In this document: positions 3,812 through 20,958 of the stretch, in pieces | How the letters are laid out: each line of letters starts with the position of its first letter | How positions within the stretch are numbered: position 1 is the stretch's first letter | From: an uncultured Verrucomicrobiae bacterium | GTDB lineage: Bacteria > Verrucomicrobiota > Verrucomicrobiia > Chthoniobacterales > JAATET01 | Assembly (NCBI GenBank): GCA_963719495.1 | Contig: CAVRCI010000013.1 | Location: forward strand, 224,001 to 288,000 | Direction of reading: 5' to 3' | Length of the DNA stretch: 64,000 nt | Notes under the pieces: generated by a model | The model's database searches: none | Told to the model about the DNA's origin: nothing | Seen by the model: the letters and a program-made list of their open reading frames with translations, nothing else | Position numbers and translations under genes: made by a program

Positions 3812-6800
3812 ATGCGATTCGCTAACCTCCGTTCCGCCTCCTTCCTCTCGCTCGCAATTTTCTCCCTCGCGTCCATCCATTCAGCCTCGGCGCACGGCTC
3901 CATGGCCGATCCGCTCAGTCGATCCTACGCCGTCTTCCTCGGCAATCCCCAGTCCCCCGACAACCCCGCCCACGCCGCGGCCATCGCCGCCGCCGGCACC
4001 CAGGCCTTCTACGATTGGCACGAGGTCAACGGCCTGTTTCCCGGCCGCGATTACCAGACCCGCATCCCCGATGGCCAGCTCCCCGGCGTCGGTCGCGCCA
4101 AATACGCCGGCCTCAACCTCGCCCGCACCGATTGGCCGACCACCCCCGTCGCCCCCGGCCCCTACGCCTGCACGTTCTTCGCCCCCACCCCGCACGAACC
4201 TTCCACCTTCGAACTCTACCTCACCAAACCCGGCTACGATCCGACCCAGCCCATCAAGTGGTCCGACCTCCAACGGCTCCCCGACCCGACCGACCTCCGC
4301 CTTGAAGGAGCCAACTACCGCTTCACCGCCCAATTCCCGCAACGGACTGGTCATCACGTCCTCTACGTCATCTGGCAGCGCATCGACCCCGCCGGCGAAG
4401 CCTTCTTTTCCACCAGTGACCTCCTCTTCTCGGGATCCGGGACCAACCCCACGCCAACTCCCACTCCCGCCCCAACCCCCACGCCGCAGCCGACTCCACA
4501 GACGACCCTTTCGACGCTCGAAATCACCAGCGACTGGGGCAGCGGCTTCGTCGGACGCATCACGACCGAAAATCCCACTCACTCGCCGCTCAACGGCTGG
4601 ACGCTGCAGTTCGATCTGCCCCGCGACATCGTCAATCTCTGGGACGCCGTGATCGTCTCCCACGTCGGCGACACCTACACGGTTCGCAACGCCAGTTGGA
4701 ACGGCAACGTCGCCGCCCATGGCTCGTTTGCGTTCGGGTTCCAAGCCGCCGGCGGCGACGGGAACCTCCAACCCACCAACGTCCGACTCCTCTCCGCCGG
4801 AGCGCCCACTCCGACTCCGACGCCCGCTCCCTCTCCGAGTCCCACGCCAAACCCAACACCGGTTCCAACTCCGACTCCAACTCCCACGCCAACTCCCACG
4901 CCGACTCCAACTCCAACTCCAACTCCAACTCCCACGCCGACTCCAACTCCGACTCCAACTCCAACTCCGACTCCGACTCCAACTCCCACGCCAATTCCCG
5001 GCTCACCGAACACGACCGTCAATCTTGGGTCCGCACTCGTCACCTTCACCGTTAACAACGACTGGGGTGGCGGCTTCGAAGGACAGGTGTCCGTGAAGAA
5101 CCTCACCTCGACCACACTCCGCGCTTGGAACGTCTCCTTCGACCTGCCTCGAACCATCGCGAACGTCTGGAACGCCCGCATCGCGTCCCAGTCCGGCTCC
5201 ACCTTCCGCTTCAACGCCAAGACCTTTTCCTGGAACCGCGACATCCGACCCGGTGCCACCGTTTCCTTCGGGTTCATCGGCTCCGCCGGGAACCTCCGCA
5301 CCTCGCCCACGAACTTCGCCTTCTCCTCCAGCGGCGCCGTTCCAAACCCAACGCCAACGCCAACGCCAACGCCAACGCCAACGCCAACTCCCACTCCCAC
5401 TCCCACTCCCACTCCGACGCCAACGCCCACTCCCACTCCCACCCCAACTCCCACTCCGACGCCCACTCCGACGCCCACACCAACGCCCACACCAACGCCA
5501 ACTCCCACCCCGGGCAGCTTCAACTACGGCGAAGTCCTCCAGAAATCCCTCTACTTCTACGAAGCCCAACGTTCCGGTGCTCTTCCCGCCGACACCCGCG
5601 TCGTCTGGCGCGGTGACTCCGCCCTTGGCGACGGCTCCGACGTCGGCGTCGACCTCACCGGTGGCTACTACGACGCCGGCGATCACGTCAAATTCGCCCT
5701 CCCCATGTTCGGCTCGCTCACCCTCCTCGCGTGGGGCGGCATCGAATACCCCGCTGGCTACGGCACCGAGCGCGACGCGCTCCTCGCCACCGTCCGCTGG
5801 GGCACCGACTGGATCCTCGAGGCCAACCCCGCCCCCAACGTCCTCTACGGTCAGGTCGGCAACGGCGGTCTCGACCACGCCTACTGGGGACCGGCCGAGA
5901 CGATGACGATGGCCCGCCCGGCCTACGCGATCACCGCGCAAAAACCCGGCACCGAGATCGCCGGCGAAGCCGCCGCCGCCCTCGCCGCCTCCTCGATGCT
6001 CTTCCGCAATGACGATCCGACCTACGCCGCCACGCTCCTCGCCCGCGCCCGCCAGCTCTACACTTTCGCCGATACCCACCGCGGCACCTACACGGCGGCA
6101 ATCCCCGACGCCGCGGCCTACTACAATTCCTACTCCGGCTACGACGACGAACTCCTCTGGGCCGCCGTCTGGCTTCACCGCGCCACCGGCGAAGCCCCCT
6201 ACCTCCAGGCCGCCGAATCCCTCTTCACGCAAAAATTCGCGACCGCCACCCCGCGTTGGACCCACAACTGGGACGACAAAGGCTACGGTGCCGCCCTCCT
6301 CCTCGCCCAACTCACCGGCAAACCCGTTTACAAGACGATGACCGAGCGCTTCCTGAACTATTGGACCACCGGCGACAACGGTGCCCGCGTCACCTACACG
6401 CCCGGCGGCCTCGCCTGGCTCGCCCAGTGGGGATCCCTCCGCTACGCCACCACCACCGCCTTCCTCGCCGGCCTCTACGCCGACCGCGTCCGCGACGTCG
6501 GCACCCGCTACGCCGACTTTGCCAAGCGCCAGGTCGACTACGCCCTCGGCGACAACCCCGCCAACCGCTCCTACGTCGTCGGCTTCGGCAACAATCCTCC
6601 CATCAATCCCCACCACCGCACCGCCCACGGCTCCTGGGCGAACTCGATCACCAACCCCACCGACAACCGCCACATCCTCTACGGCGCCCTCGTCGGCGGA
6701 CCCTCCTCCGCCTCCGACACCGCCTACGTCGACGACCGCACGAACTTCATCACCAACGAAGTCGCCCTCGATTACAACGCCGGCTTCACCGGCGCCCTCG

Positions 6801-7330
6801 CCCGACTCCGCCAAATCCACGGCGGCAACCCACTCGCGAATTTTCCGCCGACGGAACTCCCCGACGACGAGTTCTTCGTCGAGGCCAGCATCAACCAGCA
6901 GAACTCGAACTTCACCGAGATCCGCGCCCTCCTGAACAACCGCTCCGCCTTCCCGGCCGGCGCGTCCGACTTCCTCTCCTTCCGCTACTACCTCGACCTC
7001 TCGGAACTCCTCGCCACCGGCTACCAACCCACCGACCTCGTCGTCACCTCCGCCTACAACCAAGGCGCGACCGTCACCGGCCCGATCCTCCACGACGCCG
7101 CCCGCCAGCTCTACTACCTCTCGGTCGACTTCACCGGCACGCGGCTCGCCCCCGGCAGCAGCCAAACTTTCCGCAAGGAAATCCAATTCCGCATCGCCGC
7201 GCCGACGACCGCCGCGTGGAACCCCACCAACGACCCATCCTACCAAGGTCTCGCCACCGGCACCCCCCGGAAGACCGCCACCATCCCCGTCTTCCAAGGC
7301 ACCGAACTCCTCGAAGGCACCGTCCCCTGA
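3812..7330 (+). CDS. Secreted multimodular enzyme: AA10 LPMO - CBM2 - CBM2 - GH9 cellulase - CBM3c
   Basis: Signal peptide ending ASA|H (His1 at 3893), second His in PTPHEP, WQRID..EAFF; two CBM2 domains (DWGxGF..W..WN); PT linkers; GH9 motifs [12 protein letters not shown] and [11 protein letters not shown]-terminal CBM3c ([15 protein letters not shown]). Confidence 0.92.
4805..4997 (+). repeat. Pro-Thr linker hexanucleotide repeat
   Basis: (CCNACN)n encoding PTPT between the two CBM2 domains. Confidence 0.9.
5345..5511 (+). repeat. Pro-Thr linker hexanucleotide repeat
   Basis: (CCNACN)n encoding PTPT between CBM2 and GH9. Confidence 0.9.
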
Positions 7331-8865: not shown

Positions 8866-8908
8866 GCGAGACCGGATTCCGGACCATTTCTCTTTCCTAA
8901 AAAATCTC

Positions 8909-9406
8909 ATGAACCTCAATAAACTCGCATCCAGCCCCACTCCGGAACCCGCACCCATGGGTGGCTCCGGCAAGAACGTTCTCGCCAACGACGTCGAGAT
9001 CAAGGGCACCATCAAATTCGACAACGAACTCATCTGCGACGGTAAAGTCGAAGGCGAGATTCTCTCCGACGGCGTCCTCGTCATCGGCAAGAACGCCGTG
9101 GTTCGCGGCGAAGTCATGACCAAGGCCGTCACCGTTCACGGCACCGTCCTCGGCAACATCACCGTCACCGAGAAGGCCGAGCTCAAAGCCAGCTCGCAGC
9201 TCACCGGCGACCTCACCGCCTCCCGCATCGTCATCGAGGAAGGTGCCACCTTCGTCGGCAAATCCGAAGTCACTCCGAACAAAAATTCGAGCCGCCCCGC
9301 ACCGACCAAGCCAGCGGACTCCCCGCCGTCCTCCGATTCGAAATCCGGTTCCCCGAACCAACCCGCCTCGCAGCCGGACCGGGCCAAGGAAGTCGCCAAC
9401 GCCTAA
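8909..9406 (+). CDS. Bactofilin (polymer-forming cytoskeletal protein)
   Basis: VEIKGTIKF..ICDGKVEGEI..VRGEV..VHGTVLGNI..LTGDL..IEEGATFVG beta-helix pattern; disordered tail. Confidence 0.9.
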   Translation: MNLNKLASSPTPEPAPMGGSGKNVLANDVEIKGTIKFDNELICDGKVEGEILSDGVLVIGKNAVVRGEVMTKAVTVHGTVLGNITVTEKAELKASSQLTGDLTASRIVIEEGATFVGKSEVTPNKNSSRPAPTKPADSPPSSDSKSGSPNQPASQPDRAKEVANA

Positions 9407-9455: not shown

Positions 9456-10241
9456 ATGTTTGGCGCAATCCGAAAAATTCCGACCACGTGCCCGCACTGC
9501 GGATTCGTTCAAAACGAACCCGCGGCGCTCCTCTCCACGTTCTGCCGGAGCTGCGGCGACCACTACTCGACCACCGCCGCGCCGCCGAACCCGGCCGCCA
9601 TCCCGGTCACCATCCCCGCGGCCCTCAGGGCTCAGACGAGAACTGTCGACTGCGCCGGTTGCGGCCTCGACCACACCGTCTCCGCCCAAATCCACTCGTC
9701 ACGCTGCCCCACCTGCGGCACCGAGACCCACCTCTCCGACGTTCACATCACCAGCCACTTCGCCCGCCCGGTCGACACCCGTGGCACGATCCACGTCGCC
9801 CGCACCGGTTACCTCAATGCCCCCCACACCCGCTGCGCGAACGCCCGCATCGAGGGCCAATTTTCCGGACGCATCGACTGCGCCGGCACCCTGCGTATCC
9901 GAGGCGAAGGCATCTGCCGCGCCCGCATCGAGACCCGCACCCTCATCATCGACCGCGGGAGCGACTTCCGCTTCGCCTTCCCCATCCGGGCCGACGAAAT
10001 CCTCATCCGCGGCCACGTCGAAGCCGACATTTTCTGCCCCGGCACCATCCGCGTCGGCCGCTACGGCTGGCTCGACGGCGACGTCCACACCCGCTCCCTC
10101 ATCGTCGACAAAGGCGGCGCCTACGAAGGCTCCGTCGAGGTCGCCACCACGATCATCGACAACTACCCCCGGGCCGGCGCCATCCGCCCACCGGAAATCA
10201 AAGTCCTCCCCGCCTGGCAATCCATCTTCGCCACCGCGTAG
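9456..10241 (+). CDS. Double zinc-ribbon plus bactofilin-domain protein
   Basis: Four CxxC motifs (CPHC, CRSC, CAGC, CPTC) followed by bactofilin-like repeats ending VDKGGAYEG. Confidence 0.75.
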   Translation: MFGAIRKIPTTCPHCGFVQNEPAALLSTFCRSCGDHYSTTAAPPNPAAIPVTIPAALRAQTRTVDCAGCGLDHTVSAQIHSSRCPTCGTETHLSDVHITSHFARPVDTRGTIHVARTGYLNAPHTRCANARIEGQFSGRIDCAGTLRIRGEGICRARIETRTLIIDRGSDFRFAFPIRADEILIRGHVEADIFCPGTIRVGRYGWLDGDVHTRSLIVDKGGAYEGSVEVATTIIDNYPRAGAIRPPEIKVLPAWQSIFATA

Positions 10242-12711: not shown

Positions 12712-12815
12712 TCCGTCGGCCTAGGAAAGCAAGGGTGGAAGTCCCTCACTGTCGCGCAAAGGTCATAGTCCGGTTTCGAACCGACGGAGAAAACCGCACC
12801 GCCCTGCGATGGGCA
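12712..12815 (+). ncRNA. Compact cobalamin riboswitch candidate (class II-like)
   Basis: 8-bp closing helix TCCGTCGG/CCGACGGA; core AGGAAAG-AGGGTGGAAGTCCCT-CACTGTCGCGCAA-GGT..AGTCCG; downstream hairpin GCCC-TGCGAT-GGGC able to kiss the TCGC loop; BtuM-like gene downstream. Confidence 0.7.
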
Positions 12816-12844
12816 ACGGCGCCGCGTAAGCGTCCGTGCGGGGG

Positions 12845-12913
12845 GAGTCCTTTCTGATTTTTCGGGGGAAAGGCTGTCCTAACACATCCCCGTGTCTCAA
12901 ATCAGAAAAACTC
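12845..12913 (+). promoter_or_regulatory. Hairpin sequestering the translation-initiation region (possible expression platform)
   Basis: GAGT..TTTCTGATTT (12845-12860) pairs with AAATCAGAAA.ACTC, which ends immediately before the ATG at 12914. Confidence 0.5.
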
Positions 12914-13609
12914 ATGATAAAGTCACTTCTTCGGAAGCTCCTCGTCGCGTCGACCCTTGCCGCCGCCGCACTCACCACGTCCCTTCAATCGGCCCCGATC
13001 ACGGGATTCGACGACATCCAACTCTGGTATGGCACCGGCACCAACCGCGCCGGCTTAGTTATCGACTGGAACGACGGCAAATCCTCCAACAGCCTCGCGT
13101 GGGGCTTTCGCTGGAACGGCACCGCCACCGGCGAGGACATGTTCACCGCCGTCGCCGGAGCCATCGCCACATTCGCCAGCGGCACTCCGGCACCCCCACC
13201 TTCCCCCGACGGTTTGGGCGACCCAAGTCTCGCGCTCTACCAGCGCCAGTTCTCGTCCGGAAATTCCGTCGACCGCATCACCTTCGATCTCAACGGCAAC
13301 GGTGCGCTGGACGCGGGTGACAACGACCAGAACAGCGATGGGTTCATGAATGGGTTTTGGAGCTATTGGAACGACGAAGGCACCGGCGACTACCCGACAA
13401 GCTGGACGGACGCACCAGTCGGTTTCTCGGACCGCGACCTCGTAAACGGAAGCTGGGACGCCTGGAGCTACGTTCCAGATTTCGACGGAATCCCACCCCG
13501 CGCCGCCATCGCGGCGGTCCCTGAACCCAGATCCATCTGGCTCCTGATCACCGCCGTCAGCACAGCCATCGTAATCGCCGTCACCCGCCACCGCCGTGCA
13601 AAACTCTGA
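12914..13609 (+). CDS. PEP-CTERM surface protein, Trp/Asp-rich (candidate corrinoid-binding)
   Basis: Signal peptide; C-terminal VPEP-TM-RHRR sorting signal; first gene after the riboswitch. Confidence 0.85.
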   Translation: MIKSLLRKLLVASTLAAAALTTSLQSAPITGFDDIQLWYGTGTNRAGLVIDWNDGKSSNSLAWGFRWNGTATGEDMFTAVAGAIATFASGTPAPPPSPDGLGDPSLALYQRQFSSGNSVDRITFDLNGNGALDAGDNDQNSDGFMNGFWSYWNDEGTGDYPTSWTDAPVGFSDRDLVNGSWDAWSYVPDFDGIPPRAAIAAVPEPRSIWLLITAVSTAIVIAVTRHRRAKL

Positions 13610-14385
13610 TGCGGCCGCATCGAAGTTTTGCAAGGTTTGGGGGTTTTCGTGCGTTCACGCTGATCGAGATTTTGGTGACCCTCGCGGTGGTAGTTGCTCT
13701 CGCGGCGCTCACTACCCAAGTCGCGCGCGCCGTCTACCTGCGATCTTCGCTGGCCGTGTCAGCGGCCAACATTCGGGCCCTGTCCGTGGGCGCGGCGCAA
13801 TACCTGGCCGAGAATAACCATCGCTTCTGGAAATTTCGCGAAGACTCCTCCGACGGGACAACTTGGTGGTGGGGGTTCGAGACAACAGCCAGTCGGGCTC
13901 GCCCGGAAGGTGATCGCACCTACGATCCAAGTCGCGGACCCCTCCGCGAATTCATCCCCGCAGGCACTCGTCCGGACCCCAGCTTCGCGTTGAGCGGCTC
14001 GGCGTTTAAACCAAAGTTCCAAAGTGGCTACGTCGGTGCCGGCTACAACGTCCTCCTCTGCGGCGGATTCGCCGGCACCCGGACCAATCCCCTCGCCGGT
14101 CGAAGCTACTGGGAACTCAGCGACCCTTCGAAAGTCGTCGTCTTCACCACCTCCGCTCAGGTCTACCCCTTCGGTTCCGCCAGCAAACCCCGGATCGAGG
14201 AGTTTTACGGCATCGACCAACGCGAGACGACCGTCCACTTCCGGCACGGAGGATCGGCCATGGTCGCCTACGCCAGCGGCGCCAGCGGCTTCCTCCCGCC
14301 CGACGAATCCACCCTCGACAAACGGGCACCCGAAGCGAAAATCGGTCGCTTCGCACCCGTCGGCAGCCGAAAATACCTGGAATGA
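13609..14385 (+). CDS. Prepilin-type N-terminal cleavage/methylation protein with a degenerate H-X9-DG motif
   Basis: RA|FTLIEILVTLAVV; C-terminal HFRHGGSAMVAYASG; TGATG coupling to the previous gene. Confidence 0.85.
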   Translation: MRPHRSFARFGGFRAFTLIEILVTLAVVVALAALTTQVARAVYLRSSLAVSAANIRALSVGAAQYLAENNHRFWKFREDSSDGTTWWWGFETTASRARPEGDRTYDPSRGPLREFIPAGTRPDPSFALSGSAFKPKFQSGYVGAGYNVLLCGGFAGTRTNPLAGRSYWELSDPSKVVVFTTSAQVYPFGSASKPRIEEFYGIDQRETTVHFRHGGSAMVAYASGASGFLPPDESTLDKRAPEAKIGRFAPVGSRKYLE

Positions 14386-14978
14386 AAACACCATCCGCCC
14401 GCCTCACCACCCCGATTCTCGCCCTCGCGCTCGGCCTTCTCCTCGTCGGAGCCTTCTTCCGCGTCATCCGACTCGAAGCCCTCCCCGCCCTCCCGAATTT
14501 CGCCCCCCTCATGGCCATCGCCCTCTGCGGTGCCCTCGTCCTCCCCGGTGCCGTCGCCATCCTCGTCCCGCTCACCGCCCTGATCGTCTCGGACGTCCTC
14601 CTCAACTTCCACTACGGCTACCCCGCCGTCGGCTCCGACGAGCTGCTCCGCTACGCCATTTACGGCATCGGCATCGCCTCCGGCATCGCCCTCCGCGGCC
14701 GCCGCGCCCCGATGATCTTTGGTGCCGTTGCCGCAAACTCGTTCCTCTTCTACCTCGTCTCGAACACCGCGTCCTGGTTCGGCAACTTCGGCTACGCGCA
14801 GACCGCCGCCGGCTGGGTTCAAGCCCTCACCGTCGGCCTCCCCGGATTCCCGCCCACCTGGGTCTTCTTCCGCAACTCCCTCGCCAGCGACCTCCTCTTC
14901 GCGGGCATCTTCCTCGGAGCGCTCGCCCTCGTGCGCCAGTCTCGCCAGACGCAATCGCCTCAGCTGGCAAAAGTTTAA
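14382..14978 (+). CDS. DUF6580/BtuM-like membrane protein (solitary ECF S-component-like)
   Basis: About 6 TM segments; PNFAPLMAIAL, FYLVSN..W, Y..T..G..ALT.GLP and FFRNSL.SDL motifs; ATGA overlap. Confidence 0.75.
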   Translation: MKTPSARLTTPILALALGLLLVGAFFRVIRLEALPALPNFAPLMAIALCGALVLPGAVAILVPLTALIVSDVLLNFHYGYPAVGSDELLRYAIYGIGIASGIALRGRRAPMIFGAVAANSFLFYLVSNTASWFGNFGYAQTAAGWVQALTVGLPGFPPTWVFFRNSLASDLLFAGIFLGALALVRQSRQTQSPQLAKV

Positions 14979-18242: not shown

Positions 18243-18760
18243 CAACCGACGGACTCTAATCCCATTCCACGTCGAGCCGCAAGCCGCCGGAAGAGCGGCA
18301 AACATTTCTTGACGGACGACTGACAGCCCAGACAAATCAGGGTCTGCGGGGACGATAAGGGTCTCCGAGTCCCCAAATCAGCGGATGGGAAAATGAACGA
18401 AGGTCATGGATTACGCTTTGTCGGTGGAGACCGCGTTTGGGGGAAGCCTTCGACGTCGATGGACTCGAGCATTTCGCCGAACGTGGCTTCCCGCACCTGA
18501 CTCCTCAGCGCCAAGTCGCGGAACAGCTACTTCTCAAAATTTTTCACGCCGAAGAGGTTCGCGAGAGCGTGCTGGCGTCAGCTTGGTGTCGAATTCTTAA
18601 CAATTCGCGGTTCGAATGCATCGCCGCCTTCGCTATTCTCCGCTCGGAAAACATCATCGGCAGTCGAATTGGCCCGATCTGTGCTCCATGCTTGAACACA
18701 GTGTCCGATGGACAGTTCCAAAGCAGCAGCAAACTACCCTACCAAAATCCGCACAAACCC

Positions 18761-19498
18761 ATGAAAAAGACACTCCTTGCCTCTACCTTCGCTCTATCTG
18801 CCGCCCTCGTCGGGCAAGCTCAGGTGCTCTTCAACGAAATCAGCGCGAGCACCACTAGTACCGATCTCGAATTCGTCGAATTTTACTCGACCATTGCTAA
18901 CGCCGACCTCTCGGGATTCACTTGGCTCCGGATTGAGAGTGGCGACACCGGTCAATTTGGCGACGTGACGAACGGAGCCAACCTTGGAACCGCCACCGGA
19001 AATCTTTTCTTTTCGAGCACCTTTGCCGGCGGTGCGCTGGAGAATGGGGCATCCACCTTCCTGCTCGTATCGAACTACACTGGAACATTCACGTCGACAG
19101 ATCTCGACACCAACGACGACGGAACCTTCGACGTGACGCCATGGGATGCGATCATTGATTCTGTTGCTATCAACATCGACAATGATGACACCGTGTTTTT
19201 CTACAGCCCTGTCATCCTCGGCCCTGGAATCGATGGCGCGACAAGCACGTTCGGTCCGGGGGGCGCGGCACTAAAGGCGGATGGCGTCGGCGGAAATGCT
19301 TCCAATTGGGTCCGTCTGGACTTCAGCCAAAACACCAACGGATCGACACCGAACACGCCGTATGCGCTTAATCCTGGGGTCGACTACGACCCGACCGGCG
19401 GTACTCTCAATGCGGTTCCCGAACCCAGCACCATTGCCATGCTCATCTTGGGAATCGGCTCTGGATTGCTCGCCCTGCGTCGCCGACGCGCAGCCTAG
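18761..19498 (+). CDS. PEP-CTERM surface protein (lamin-tail-like N-terminus)
   Basis: Signal peptide, VLFNEI..EFVEF, C-terminal VPEPS-TM-RRRR. Confidence 0.85.
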   Translation: MKKTLLASTFALSAALVGQAQVLFNEISASTTSTDLEFVEFYSTIANADLSGFTWLRIESGDTGQFGDVTNGANLGTATGNLFFSSTFAGGALENGASTFLLVSNYTGTFTSTDLDTNDDGTFDVTPWDAIIDSVAINIDNDDTVFFYSPVILGPGIDGATSTFGPGGAALKADGVGGNASNWVRLDFSQNTNGSTPNTPYALNPGVDYDPTGGTLNAVPEPSTIAMLILGIGSGLLALRRRRAA

Positions 19499-19624: not shown

Positions 19625-20958
19625 GGTATGAACCGAGGACATAGGTGACAGATTGACCGAGGACATGGGTGACAGTTCAGGGTGGTGAATGCCCTGGCAA
19701 AACGAGTCACCGATGGAACAGAAACAGAGATTTGTAAGTTTGCTGACGAGCGACCGGTTCACGATGGTGGAGCTGTGCGAAAGTTTCGGCATCTCGCGCA
19801 AGACGGGTCACAAGTGGAAGGCGCGATACGAGGCCCACGGGATGGGCGGACTAGAGGATTGGAGCCGGGCCCCGAAGACGGTGACGAGCAGGACAGAAGA
19901 AGCGGTGGAGCGGCTGATTGTGGCCGAAAAGCGGTTACATCCGACGTGGGGGCCGAAGAAGATCCAGCGAGTGCTCGAAGTGAAGCACGAAGTGGATCGT
20001 TTACCGGTCGTAAGCACGGTGGGAGAGGTTCTCAAGCGGCACGGGCTGGTGAAGGCGCGCAAGCGGCGAGGAGGCCTCTTCACGGTGGAACGAGGGACGC
20101 TGACGCCGCCGGAACGCTGTAACCACGTGCTCGGAGTGGACTACAAGGGATGGTTCCTGCTGGGTGACGGCGAGCGTTGCGATCCGTTGACGGTGAGCGA
20201 TCTGCACAGTCGATACCTGATGAAAGCGGAGGCGATGCCGGACATGACGGTAAAGTGGACGCAGCGCGAGTTCCGCAGTGTATTCAAGCGCTACGGGCTG
20301 CCGGAGATCATTCGCGTGGACAATGGCTCCCCGTTCGCGTCGATGGGACCAGCGGGATTGAGCAGACTGAGCGTGTGGTGGATCGGATTGGGTATCGAAG
20401 TGCAGTTCAGCCGACCTGGCTGTCCGCAGGACAACGGCTGCCACGAACGGATGCATCGCACGATGAAGGCCGAATGCTGTCAGCCGGGAAGCGCGAACCG
20501 TTGGGCCCAACAGCAACGTTTTGACCGGTGGCGCAGAGTCTTTAACGACGAGCGTCCGCACGAGGGCATCGGCATGAGGACACCGGCGCAAGCCTATCAA
20601 CCCTCCCTGCGCCGGTTGGACGAACGCATCAAACCTGCGCTCTACGAGGCAGGGGTGGAAACCAAGCGGGTGAACAAAGCAGGCTTCATCTCCTTGAATG
20701 GAAACAACTGCTTCGTCGGCGAGTCACTGATCGGCGTCGATGTGGCCGTGGAGGAATCGCCGGAGACAGGGCTGCTGGCCGTTCGATATGCCAATGTGAA
20801 GCTCGGGTGGCTGGATCGGACTCCCAACGCTCGGCTCCGGCCTACGGCCTACGCCGAGCGTTGGGAGTCGAAGCTTGCTCCCGCAAGCCATGAAAACTAA
20901 CCCTCTAAGTGTTACCTATGTGGTCGGTTTATCTGTAACCAATGTTCCCGTTCATACC
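19625..20958 (+). mobile_element. IS481-family insertion sequence
   Basis: Terminal IRs GGTATGAAC/GTTCATACC; internal repeated ACCGAGGACAT.GGTGACAG at the left end; single transposase. Confidence 0.85.
19689..20900 (+). CDS. IS481-family DDE transposase
   Basis: MPW start, HTH (FGISRKTGHKW), rve motifs DYKG, DNGSPF and NGCHERMHRTMK. Confidence 0.92.
   Translation: MPWQNESPMEQKQRFVSLLTSDRFTMVELCESFGISRKTGHKWKARYEAHGMGGLEDWSRAPKTVTSRTEEAVERLIVAEKRLHPTWGPKKIQRVLEVKHEVDRLPVVSTVGEVLKRHGLVKARKRRGGLFTVERGTLTPPERCNHVLGVDYKGWFLLGDGERCDPLTVSDLHSRYLMKAEAMPDMTVKWTQREFRSVFKRYGLPEIIRVDNGSPFASMGPAGLSRLSVWWIGLGIEVQFSRPGCPQDNGCHERMHRTMKAECCQPGSANRWAQQQRFDRWRRVFNDERPHEGIGMRTPAQAYQPSLRRLDERIKPALYEAGVETKRVNKAGFISLNGNNCFVGESLIGVDVAVEESPETGLLAVRYANVKLGWLDRTPNARLRPTAYAERWESKLAPASHEN

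Follow-up and report, generated by a model that had tools for sequence, protein, structure and literature searches.

A predicted vitamin B12 uptake operon of a Verrucomicrobiae bacterium, in which a PEP-CTERM protein and a pilin may stand in for the TonB-dependent receptor

Introduction

How does vitamin B12 enter a Gram-negative cell whose genome seems to hold no receptor for it? Its import over the outer membrane is held to need the TonB-dependent receptor BtuB (PMC6072759). The question is raised by a three-gene operon lying, with its leader, at positions 12713-14978 of a stretch of 64,000 nucleotides (hereafter the window: contig CAVRCI010000013.1 of assembly GCA_963719495.1, positions 224,001 to 288,000), from an uncultured Verrucomicrobiae bacterium with a genome of 4.54 Mb, 98.6% complete. 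An earlier note on this DNA proposed that a surface binder, a pilin-like carrier and an inner-membrane S component form a corrinoid uptake route, encoded behind a cobalamin-riboswitch-like leader. The results presented here suggest that the operon almost certainly serves corrinoid (B12) uptake, and that its first two products, a PEP-CTERM protein and a pilin, probably fill the outer-membrane slot of BtuB.

Results and Discussion

A predicted B12-regulated operon in a genome without a detectable TonB receptor

The operon consists of three plus-strand open reading frames (ORFs) of the window, 12914-13609, 13609-14385 and 14382-14978, coding for the PEP-CTERM protein, the pilin-like protein and a DUF6580 protein. 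Coordinates and junction letters agree with the coupling claimed in the earlier note, the genes overlapping by TGATG and ATGA, and the ORF list and a Pfam scan of the operon likewise agree that it holds no btuB, btuCDF or energy-coupling factor (ECF) gene. A promoter and terminator scan gave nothing above chance, and PDB sequence searches with all three proteins gave no useful match. The linkage is conserved: among 25 loci around orthologues of the pilin, the window's own included, 22 have a PEP-CTERM homologue and 15 have DUF6580, and a match to the cobalamin riboswitch clan (CL00101) lies upstream on the operon strand in 17 of the 18 orthologous loci scanned, above cut-off in 12 (left aside were the window's own locus, five with short or unneeded flanks and one for its size).

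In the window itself, the leader matches the class-II (AdoCbl-II, adenosylcobalamin) aptamer model RF01689 at 12713-12787 of the plus strand, over the full length of the model (1-81), with 24 bits and an E of 0.0026 (401 bases searched) against a gathering score of 36.5. It is the only cobalamin riboswitch match found in the genome, where 150 candidates were scored in each search. Alignment of 14 leaders has 99.6% of its cells paired and 13 cells compensatory, a number that none of 500 shuffles reached, although with related sequences the shuffle count is not a probability; the compensatory pairs are located in the outer stem and the second stem of the aptamer. The conserved structured part that follows on the same strand (12788-12913) is paired by RNAalifold in the 14 leaders as two hairpins in a closing stem and then a further stem, with some compensatory changes, and is likely to hold the kissing-loop partner and the expression platform. 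Folding of the single sequence gave the same energy as its shuffles (z -0.07), which alone lends no support to a structure. The cobalamin-riboswitch-like leader of the earlier note is thus borne out by the model coverage and the orthologous loci, while the window's own copy stays below cut-off, and we predict a cobalamin riboswitch that represses the operon. In another genome (G033, L087:7260-7991) a cobalamin riboswitch stands before cbiM and what appear to be salvage genes, and before neither of the uptake heads.

A MetH-type protein was found in the genome, and neither MetE nor CobS was, so the cell must import B12 or methionine. PF00593, PF07715 and a custom profile all recovered no TonB receptor from the genome, and tblastn with 28 receptor frames matched secretins only. 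Of PilT/PilU ATPases the genome encodes three above cut-off plus one that falls below it; four of the scanned ATPases are PilB/GspE-like, and there are also two GspF-like proteins, five genes for secretins, two exosortases and a type II secretion locus.

The pair and the BtuB-like receptor tend to exclude each other

In 61 genomes, whose coordinates were matched by hand (20 of the regions being read as operons), a cobalamin riboswitch was seen ahead of a TonB receptor in 15 and ahead of an operon containing a pilin in 28, with no genome showing both. A survey of 301 genomes of the order, with profiles built from 24 pilins (E 1e-30) and 8 receptors (E 1e-70) at thresholds of our own choosing, finds the pilin in 134, the BtuB-like receptor in 95 and both in 5, where independence would predict 42, a contrast overstated since the genomes are kin and many of them incomplete. 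The order is presumably Chthoniobacterales, the names given for the sources of close homologues being Chthoniobacterales and Terrimicrobiaceae. One pilin count comes from an unpublished genome (G016) and one receptor count from another (G172). Contrasts between pilin and receptor are also exclusive inside five genera (g8, g12, g33, g37 and g47): genus g12 has seven pilin and four receptor genomes with no overlap, g8 has one and three, and in g37 the order riboswitch, PEP-CTERM, pilin, DUF6580 (L226) stands against riboswitch, BtuB, DUF6580 (L227).

Such a distribution could also arise by lineage history, if the pair were a B12-regulated device for adhesion or storage with no role in import. 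Whole families are indeed uniform (39 of 39 genomes BtuB-like in f15, 16 of 16 with the pilin in f1), and pilin-like proteins of the MUL2 loci of Akkermansiaceae have been proposed to serve attachment (PMC13174399). This explanation seems to us very improbable, given that swaps occur inside the five genera and that heme operons show the same exclusion (see below), and it leaves the bacterium without any known way of getting B12 over its outer membrane.

Beyond the order, among 201 genomes of the phylum 56 match the pilin profile, although the weaker matches may be paralogues, and a riboswitch was seen in 7 of 20 of these loci scanned with flanks of only 1.5 kb. In the phylum to which a Sedimentisphaerales record belongs, the profile reaches E 1e-35 in 10 of 201 genomes, with a cobalamin riboswitch upstream in six of the ten loci.

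A parallel in heme uptake

Outside the window, the same genome carries a heme operon (L029:2440-9854, on contig G000:C9) with genes for a PEP-CTERM protein, a prepilin, hemS, a periplasmic binding protein, a permease, an ATPase and an AraC-type regulator, and without a TonB receptor; another PEP-CTERM gene runs divergently. With the periplasmic binding protein and the ATP-binding cassette (ABC) permease both kept, the pair seems to fill the outer-membrane slot here too. HemS was found in 55 of the 301 genomes, and 40 regions upstream of it, from 39 genomes, could be compared (excluding the window's genome, six at contig ends and nine weak matches). A relative of the B12 pilin occurs in 33 of the 40 (in one case 6 kb away), a TonB receptor in 4, both in none and neither in 3. 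Two of the four receptors match hemoglobin-receptor models, and 31 of the 33 pilin regions have a PEP-CTERM gene by pattern. This recurrence of the two-gene head with other binders makes it look like a general, TonB-independent import module. Large PEP-CTERM proteins of about 690-830 codons adjoin the heme pilin at ten loci (L152, L154, L156, L162, L163, L172, L176, L177, L178 and L180) and are candidate heme or hemoprotein binders.

The PEP-CTERM protein resembles transcobalamin in fold

The first gene (12914-13609, plus strand, from an ATG at 12914) codes for 231 amino acids, predicted to form a signal peptide, a transcobalamin-beta-like domain (residues about 40-190) and a PEP-CTERM tail. 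It is the Trp/Asp-rich PEP-CTERM protein that the earlier note described, with 10 Trp and 21 Asp, a TIGR02595 score of 16.4 bits (cut-off 16), a signal peptide, a PEP motif, a transmembrane helix and a basic tail (helices at 2-21 and 207-230), and the genome supplies the two exosortases. Pfam, scanned at E 0.1, gave no family, PF14478 (DUF4430) and PF14717 (DUF4465) both being without match. The predicted model, for which 112 of the 120 homologues listed were aligned, has a mean predicted local distance difference test score (pLDDT) of 90.7 and shows a beta-grasp-type fold, not the beta-jellyroll of DUF4465. Nearly all of its top Foldseek rows are transcobalamin, intrinsic factor or RUMGNA_00854, and in VIA the Z scores are 12.4 for intrinsic factor, 11.9 for haptocorrin, 11.6 and 11.1 for transcobalamin and 10.4 for RUMGNA_00854, the next unrelated structure reaching 6.2; superposition on the transcobalamin-type domains gives root mean square deviations (rmsd) in the range 1.8-2.2 over 96-108 residues. 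The proposal that this protein binds B12 therefore stands at the level of fold, and from the model we infer that it binds a corrinoid.

Residues 40-190 share their fold with the beta-domain of transcobalamin, intrinsic factor and haptocorrin and with the DUF4430 protein RUMGNA_00854, whereas the window's protein has long insertions, no alpha-domain, a PEP-CTERM tail and only 6-15% identity. Its family counts 1589 representatives at E 1e-10, and 50 longer homologues that were scanned include seven with DUF5074, which we take to be the BtuG-type propeller, five with DUF4430 (PF14478) and also some with type IX secretion tails. In relatives (G006, G031) a DUF4465 PEP-CTERM protein holds the slot of the binder, as DUF4465-like proteins do in 9 of 27 loci of the phylum. 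DUF4465 proteins, one of them from Coraliomargarita, bind B12 (bioRxiv 10.1101/2025.08.21.671476). The BtuG, BtuH and BtuJ (DUF4465) proteins of Bacteroidota are likewise riboswitch-regulated exported binders, but they assist BtuB, whereas the search of the window's genome turned up no BtuB, and its binder gene is followed by that of a pilin.

Elsewhere, riboswitch-proximal PEP-CTERM proteins of about 330-370 codons have no Pfam domain except the tail (L084:6275-7381, L085:3152-4183, L086:483-1496, L088:583-1569 and L091:486-1529), and are candidates for further families of B12 binders. The window holds another PEP-CTERM protein at 18437-19498 (PF07589, E 3.8e-6), followed by an ORF that looks transposase-like by eye (19689-20900).

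The pilin follows the ligand rather than its partner

The second gene (13609-14385, plus strand) codes for a prepilin-type protein of 258 amino acids, of the H-X9-DG/DUF1559-like kind and apparently specific for B12. Its prepilin cleavage/methylation N-terminus, as noted earlier, is confirmed by TIGR02532 (19.6 against a cut-off of 16.3), with Ala and not Gly at position -1. The H-X9-DG label given to it could not be kept: the motif reads H-X9-SG, and neither TIGR04294 nor PF07596 (DUF1559) matches at cut-off. Its orthologues show H-x9-[DNS]G, many of them with DG, and one scores 18.9 against a cut-off of 19, so that by its sequence the pilin works like a divergent member of this group. It shares with the DUF1559/H-X9-DG proteins of the Planctomycetes-Verrucomicrobia-Chlamydiae (PVC) bacteria the prepilin N-terminus, the motif and the atlas neighbours, in which the SBP_bac_10 label is carried by 12-31% of members, and it differs from them in falling below the family cut-offs, in being a single-copy orthologue and in its ligand-specific context. 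A pattern scan of genome_contigs recovered little besides matches to the prepilin N-terminus (19 loci, one of them full-length). Planctomycetes have expanded sets of N_methyl and SBP_bac_10 proteins flanked by secreted proteins (PMC8567305), and our literature search, with most subscription papers out of reach, found no published function for H-X9-DG/DUF1559 proteins.

The pilin might be an export adaptor that brings the PEP-CTERM binder to type II secretion, the vitamin itself entering by a different route that is shared, for example an open secretin or a porin. GlyGly-CTERM and MYXO-CTERM proteins reach the surface via type II secretion (PMC11980579), the genome has the locus for it, and by crude patterns a PEP-CTERM gene occurs no more than 3 kb from 9 of its 17 prepilins whose tail is of the DG type, while this holds for 4 of the 27 remaining prepilins and for 8% of positions taken at random. 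Yet a PEP-CTERM gene stands directly upstream of only 4 of the 44 prepilins, although patterns give 44-45 prepilin-motif and 56-106 PEP-CTERM-like ORFs in this genome. One and the same pilin clade, moreover, accompanies binders of unrelated folds (transcobalamin-like, DUF4465 and unassigned); the clade keeps to the ligand whatever fold the partner has, which favours recognition of the cargo over pure export of the partner. As such adaptation would also leave the crossing of the outer membrane by B12 unexplained, we consider it unlikely.

DUF6580 as a separable, predicted inner-membrane step

The third gene (14382-14978, plus strand) codes for 198 amino acids belonging to DUF6580 (PF20221, E 1e-30), a family on which our literature search found no paper. 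Its predicted model (pLDDT 91.8) has six long helices, and BtuM is its best match in VIA (Z 11.7, rmsd 3.7, 166 residues aligned). Fifteen of the 16 top VIA rows are chains of the ECF S-component type, with Z 7.4-11.7, values that helical bundles may reach by chance, although here the rows agree on one superfamily; the top Foldseek rows are ThiT, PanT and BtuM. The only PDB sequence match of the DUF6580 profile is CbrT (6FNP; E 1.2), with a PNxxP motif in common. CbrT has the S-component fold as well, but it works with EcfAA'T, and its structural Z to DUF6580 is only 5.3, with a chain that is partly resolved. EcfT/CbiQ (PF02361) was not found in the genome.

BtuM is defined by an invariant cysteine of loop 3 (Cys80), a ligand of the cobalt (PMC6072759). 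The window's protein has none there: with loop 3 placed by helix order and not by superposition, its only cysteine is residue 49, and 2 of 120 homologues have one at 75-90, leaving no sign of Cys ligation or decyanation. Membership of BtuM was rejected on this ground. What remains of the BtuM-like S component in the earlier note is the six-helix fold with BtuM as best match and no ECF module found, and the model would fit a solitary S component that works like BtuM but is not BtuM. By analogy with BtuM, DUF6580 may move a corrinoid across the inner membrane. The combination of BtuB and BtuM (PMC6072759) resembles this arrangement in its solitary S-component fold and missing ECF module, and in relatives DUF6580 goes together with a BtuB-like receptor (L227), whereas the window's genome has no BtuB that could be found and uses a separate Pfam family. 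His77, kept in 94 of 120 homologues, is a candidate ligand. In the same alignment (A2), Cys49 is invariant and the column of residue 93 has Cys in 84 of 120 homologues and Ile in the window. Directly after pilin and DUF6580, one relative (G032, L011:1727-2620) has an ORF that by eye resembles methionine synthase.

DUF6580 occurs in 43 of the 61 genomes. These include 14 of the 15 in which the riboswitch is linked to a TonB receptor, while in the fifteenth FecCD and ABC genes follow the receptor; nine pilin genomes lack DUF6580. It is thus a separate step, and its reading as an obligatory partner of the pilin was rejected. The fixed unit is the pair of PEP-CTERM protein and pilin, with DUF6580 as a separable inner-membrane step; of the three-part route first proposed, the B12-regulated operon, the two folds, the conserved linkage and an uptake role for the pilin find support.

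This separation bears on the idea that both exported proteins are high-affinity binders anchored in the inner membrane, which would feed DUF6580 from the periplasm while the outer membrane lets B12 pass without a dedicated receptor. Both have a membrane anchor, the operon has no BtuF-like gene and the atlas neighbours of the pilin carry SBP_bac_10, proteins with N_methyl and SBP_bac_10 being present in both detergent-soluble fractions of a planctomycete (PMC8567305). However, in the heme operon the pair stands beside a retained periplasmic binding protein, and what it swaps with is the outer-membrane receptor and not DUF6580, which the 14 BtuB genomes use without the pair. B12 is, besides, generally held too large for porins. 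We regard such a periplasmic role as rather unlikely.

A possible mechanism and what speaks against it

The explanation that we find best, and slightly more likely than not, is that of a riboswitch-repressed uptake operon in which PEP-CTERM protein and pilin replace the TonB receptor by way of a pilus and secretin, with DUF6580 making the inner step. The PEP-CTERM protein would be exported, processed by exosortase and capture cobalamin with its transcobalamin-beta-like domain. The pilin would act as a minor pilin, specific for its cargo, within the general type IV pilus or type II secretion machinery of the cell, binding either the loaded binder or the vitamin itself; retraction of the filament through the secretin would then carry the cargo to the periplasm, from where DUF6580 could move it over the inner membrane. 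For retraction as the route our confidence is evenly balanced, and the pilin may instead engage or export the binder.

Uptake of DNA by type IV pili uses ComP, a sequence-specific minor pilin. ComP pili and the MUL loci of Akkermansia (PMC13174399) both have a pilin-family protein that confers specificity on import via a secretin, whereas here a small cofactor would be the cargo, the PEP-CTERM binder would be a protein apart and a TonB receptor would be replaced. In Legionella, a pilin aids iron acquisition (PMC13170364).

Several observations weigh against this explanation, besides the kinship and incompleteness of the genomes surveyed. The Rfam scan of the window at gathering score gave no match, its leader being found below that score only; the fold matches of the binder are of low identity and reach a Foldseek E of 0.03 or weaker, and a shared fold proves no function; and the surface location of PEP-CTERM proteins is itself inferred from related sorting tags (PMC11980579). 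Neither system is present in 77 of the 301 genomes, and the five genomes with both (four of g42, one of g28) are real, one of them (G088) having a riboswitch at both loci. Among six riboswitch-linked receptors, the BtuB model TIGR01779 is the best match of five, below cut-off, and a hemin model that of the sixth. DUF6580, as said, is missing from nine pilin genomes, and nothing that was found connects the pilin with any single pilus or secretin. Finally, most pilin genomes retain one to three other TonB receptors, so that loss of TonB alone cannot explain the swap. We do not take these for hidden BtuBs, 20 that were compared being at most 34% identical to the riboswitch-linked ones; of eight that were scanned, seven match siderophore, FecA or ZnuD models best and one gives weak matches only.

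The single parts resemble known systems, and it is likely the outer-membrane step that is of a new kind; no case of a pilin and a binder taking the place of a TonB receptor came up in our literature search, limited as above. Swapping with both BtuB and heme receptors points to a second, TonB-independent import route for large cofactors. That PVC bacteria have a general import system of this sort, with an H-X9-DG-type minor pilin and a PEP-CTERM binder for each cargo and a shared retractile pilus pulling it through the secretin, is a tentative extension which we doubt somewhat more than we believe. If true, B12 and heme would be two instances of it, and the orphan DUF1559/H-X9-DG pilins, which number dozens to hundreds, would serve as specificity subunits for further cargoes, corresponding in function to the TonB receptor families of other diderms. 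Two large PVC families, these pilins and the PEP-CTERM proteins, would gain a testable role and two known ligands, DUF6580 would be assigned to the S components, and a transcobalamin-like family would be added to the bacterial B12 binders.

Other features of the window

Upstream of the operon, positions 3812-7330 code for a secreted modular protein of 1172 amino acids in which a chitin-binding or lytic polysaccharide monooxygenase-type domain, two carbohydrate-binding modules, Pro-Thr linkers and a cellulase domain like that of glycoside hydrolase family 9 can be made out by eye. Two further ORFs, at 9456-10241 and 8897-9406, look bactofilin-like by eye, one of them with zinc-ribbon motifs.

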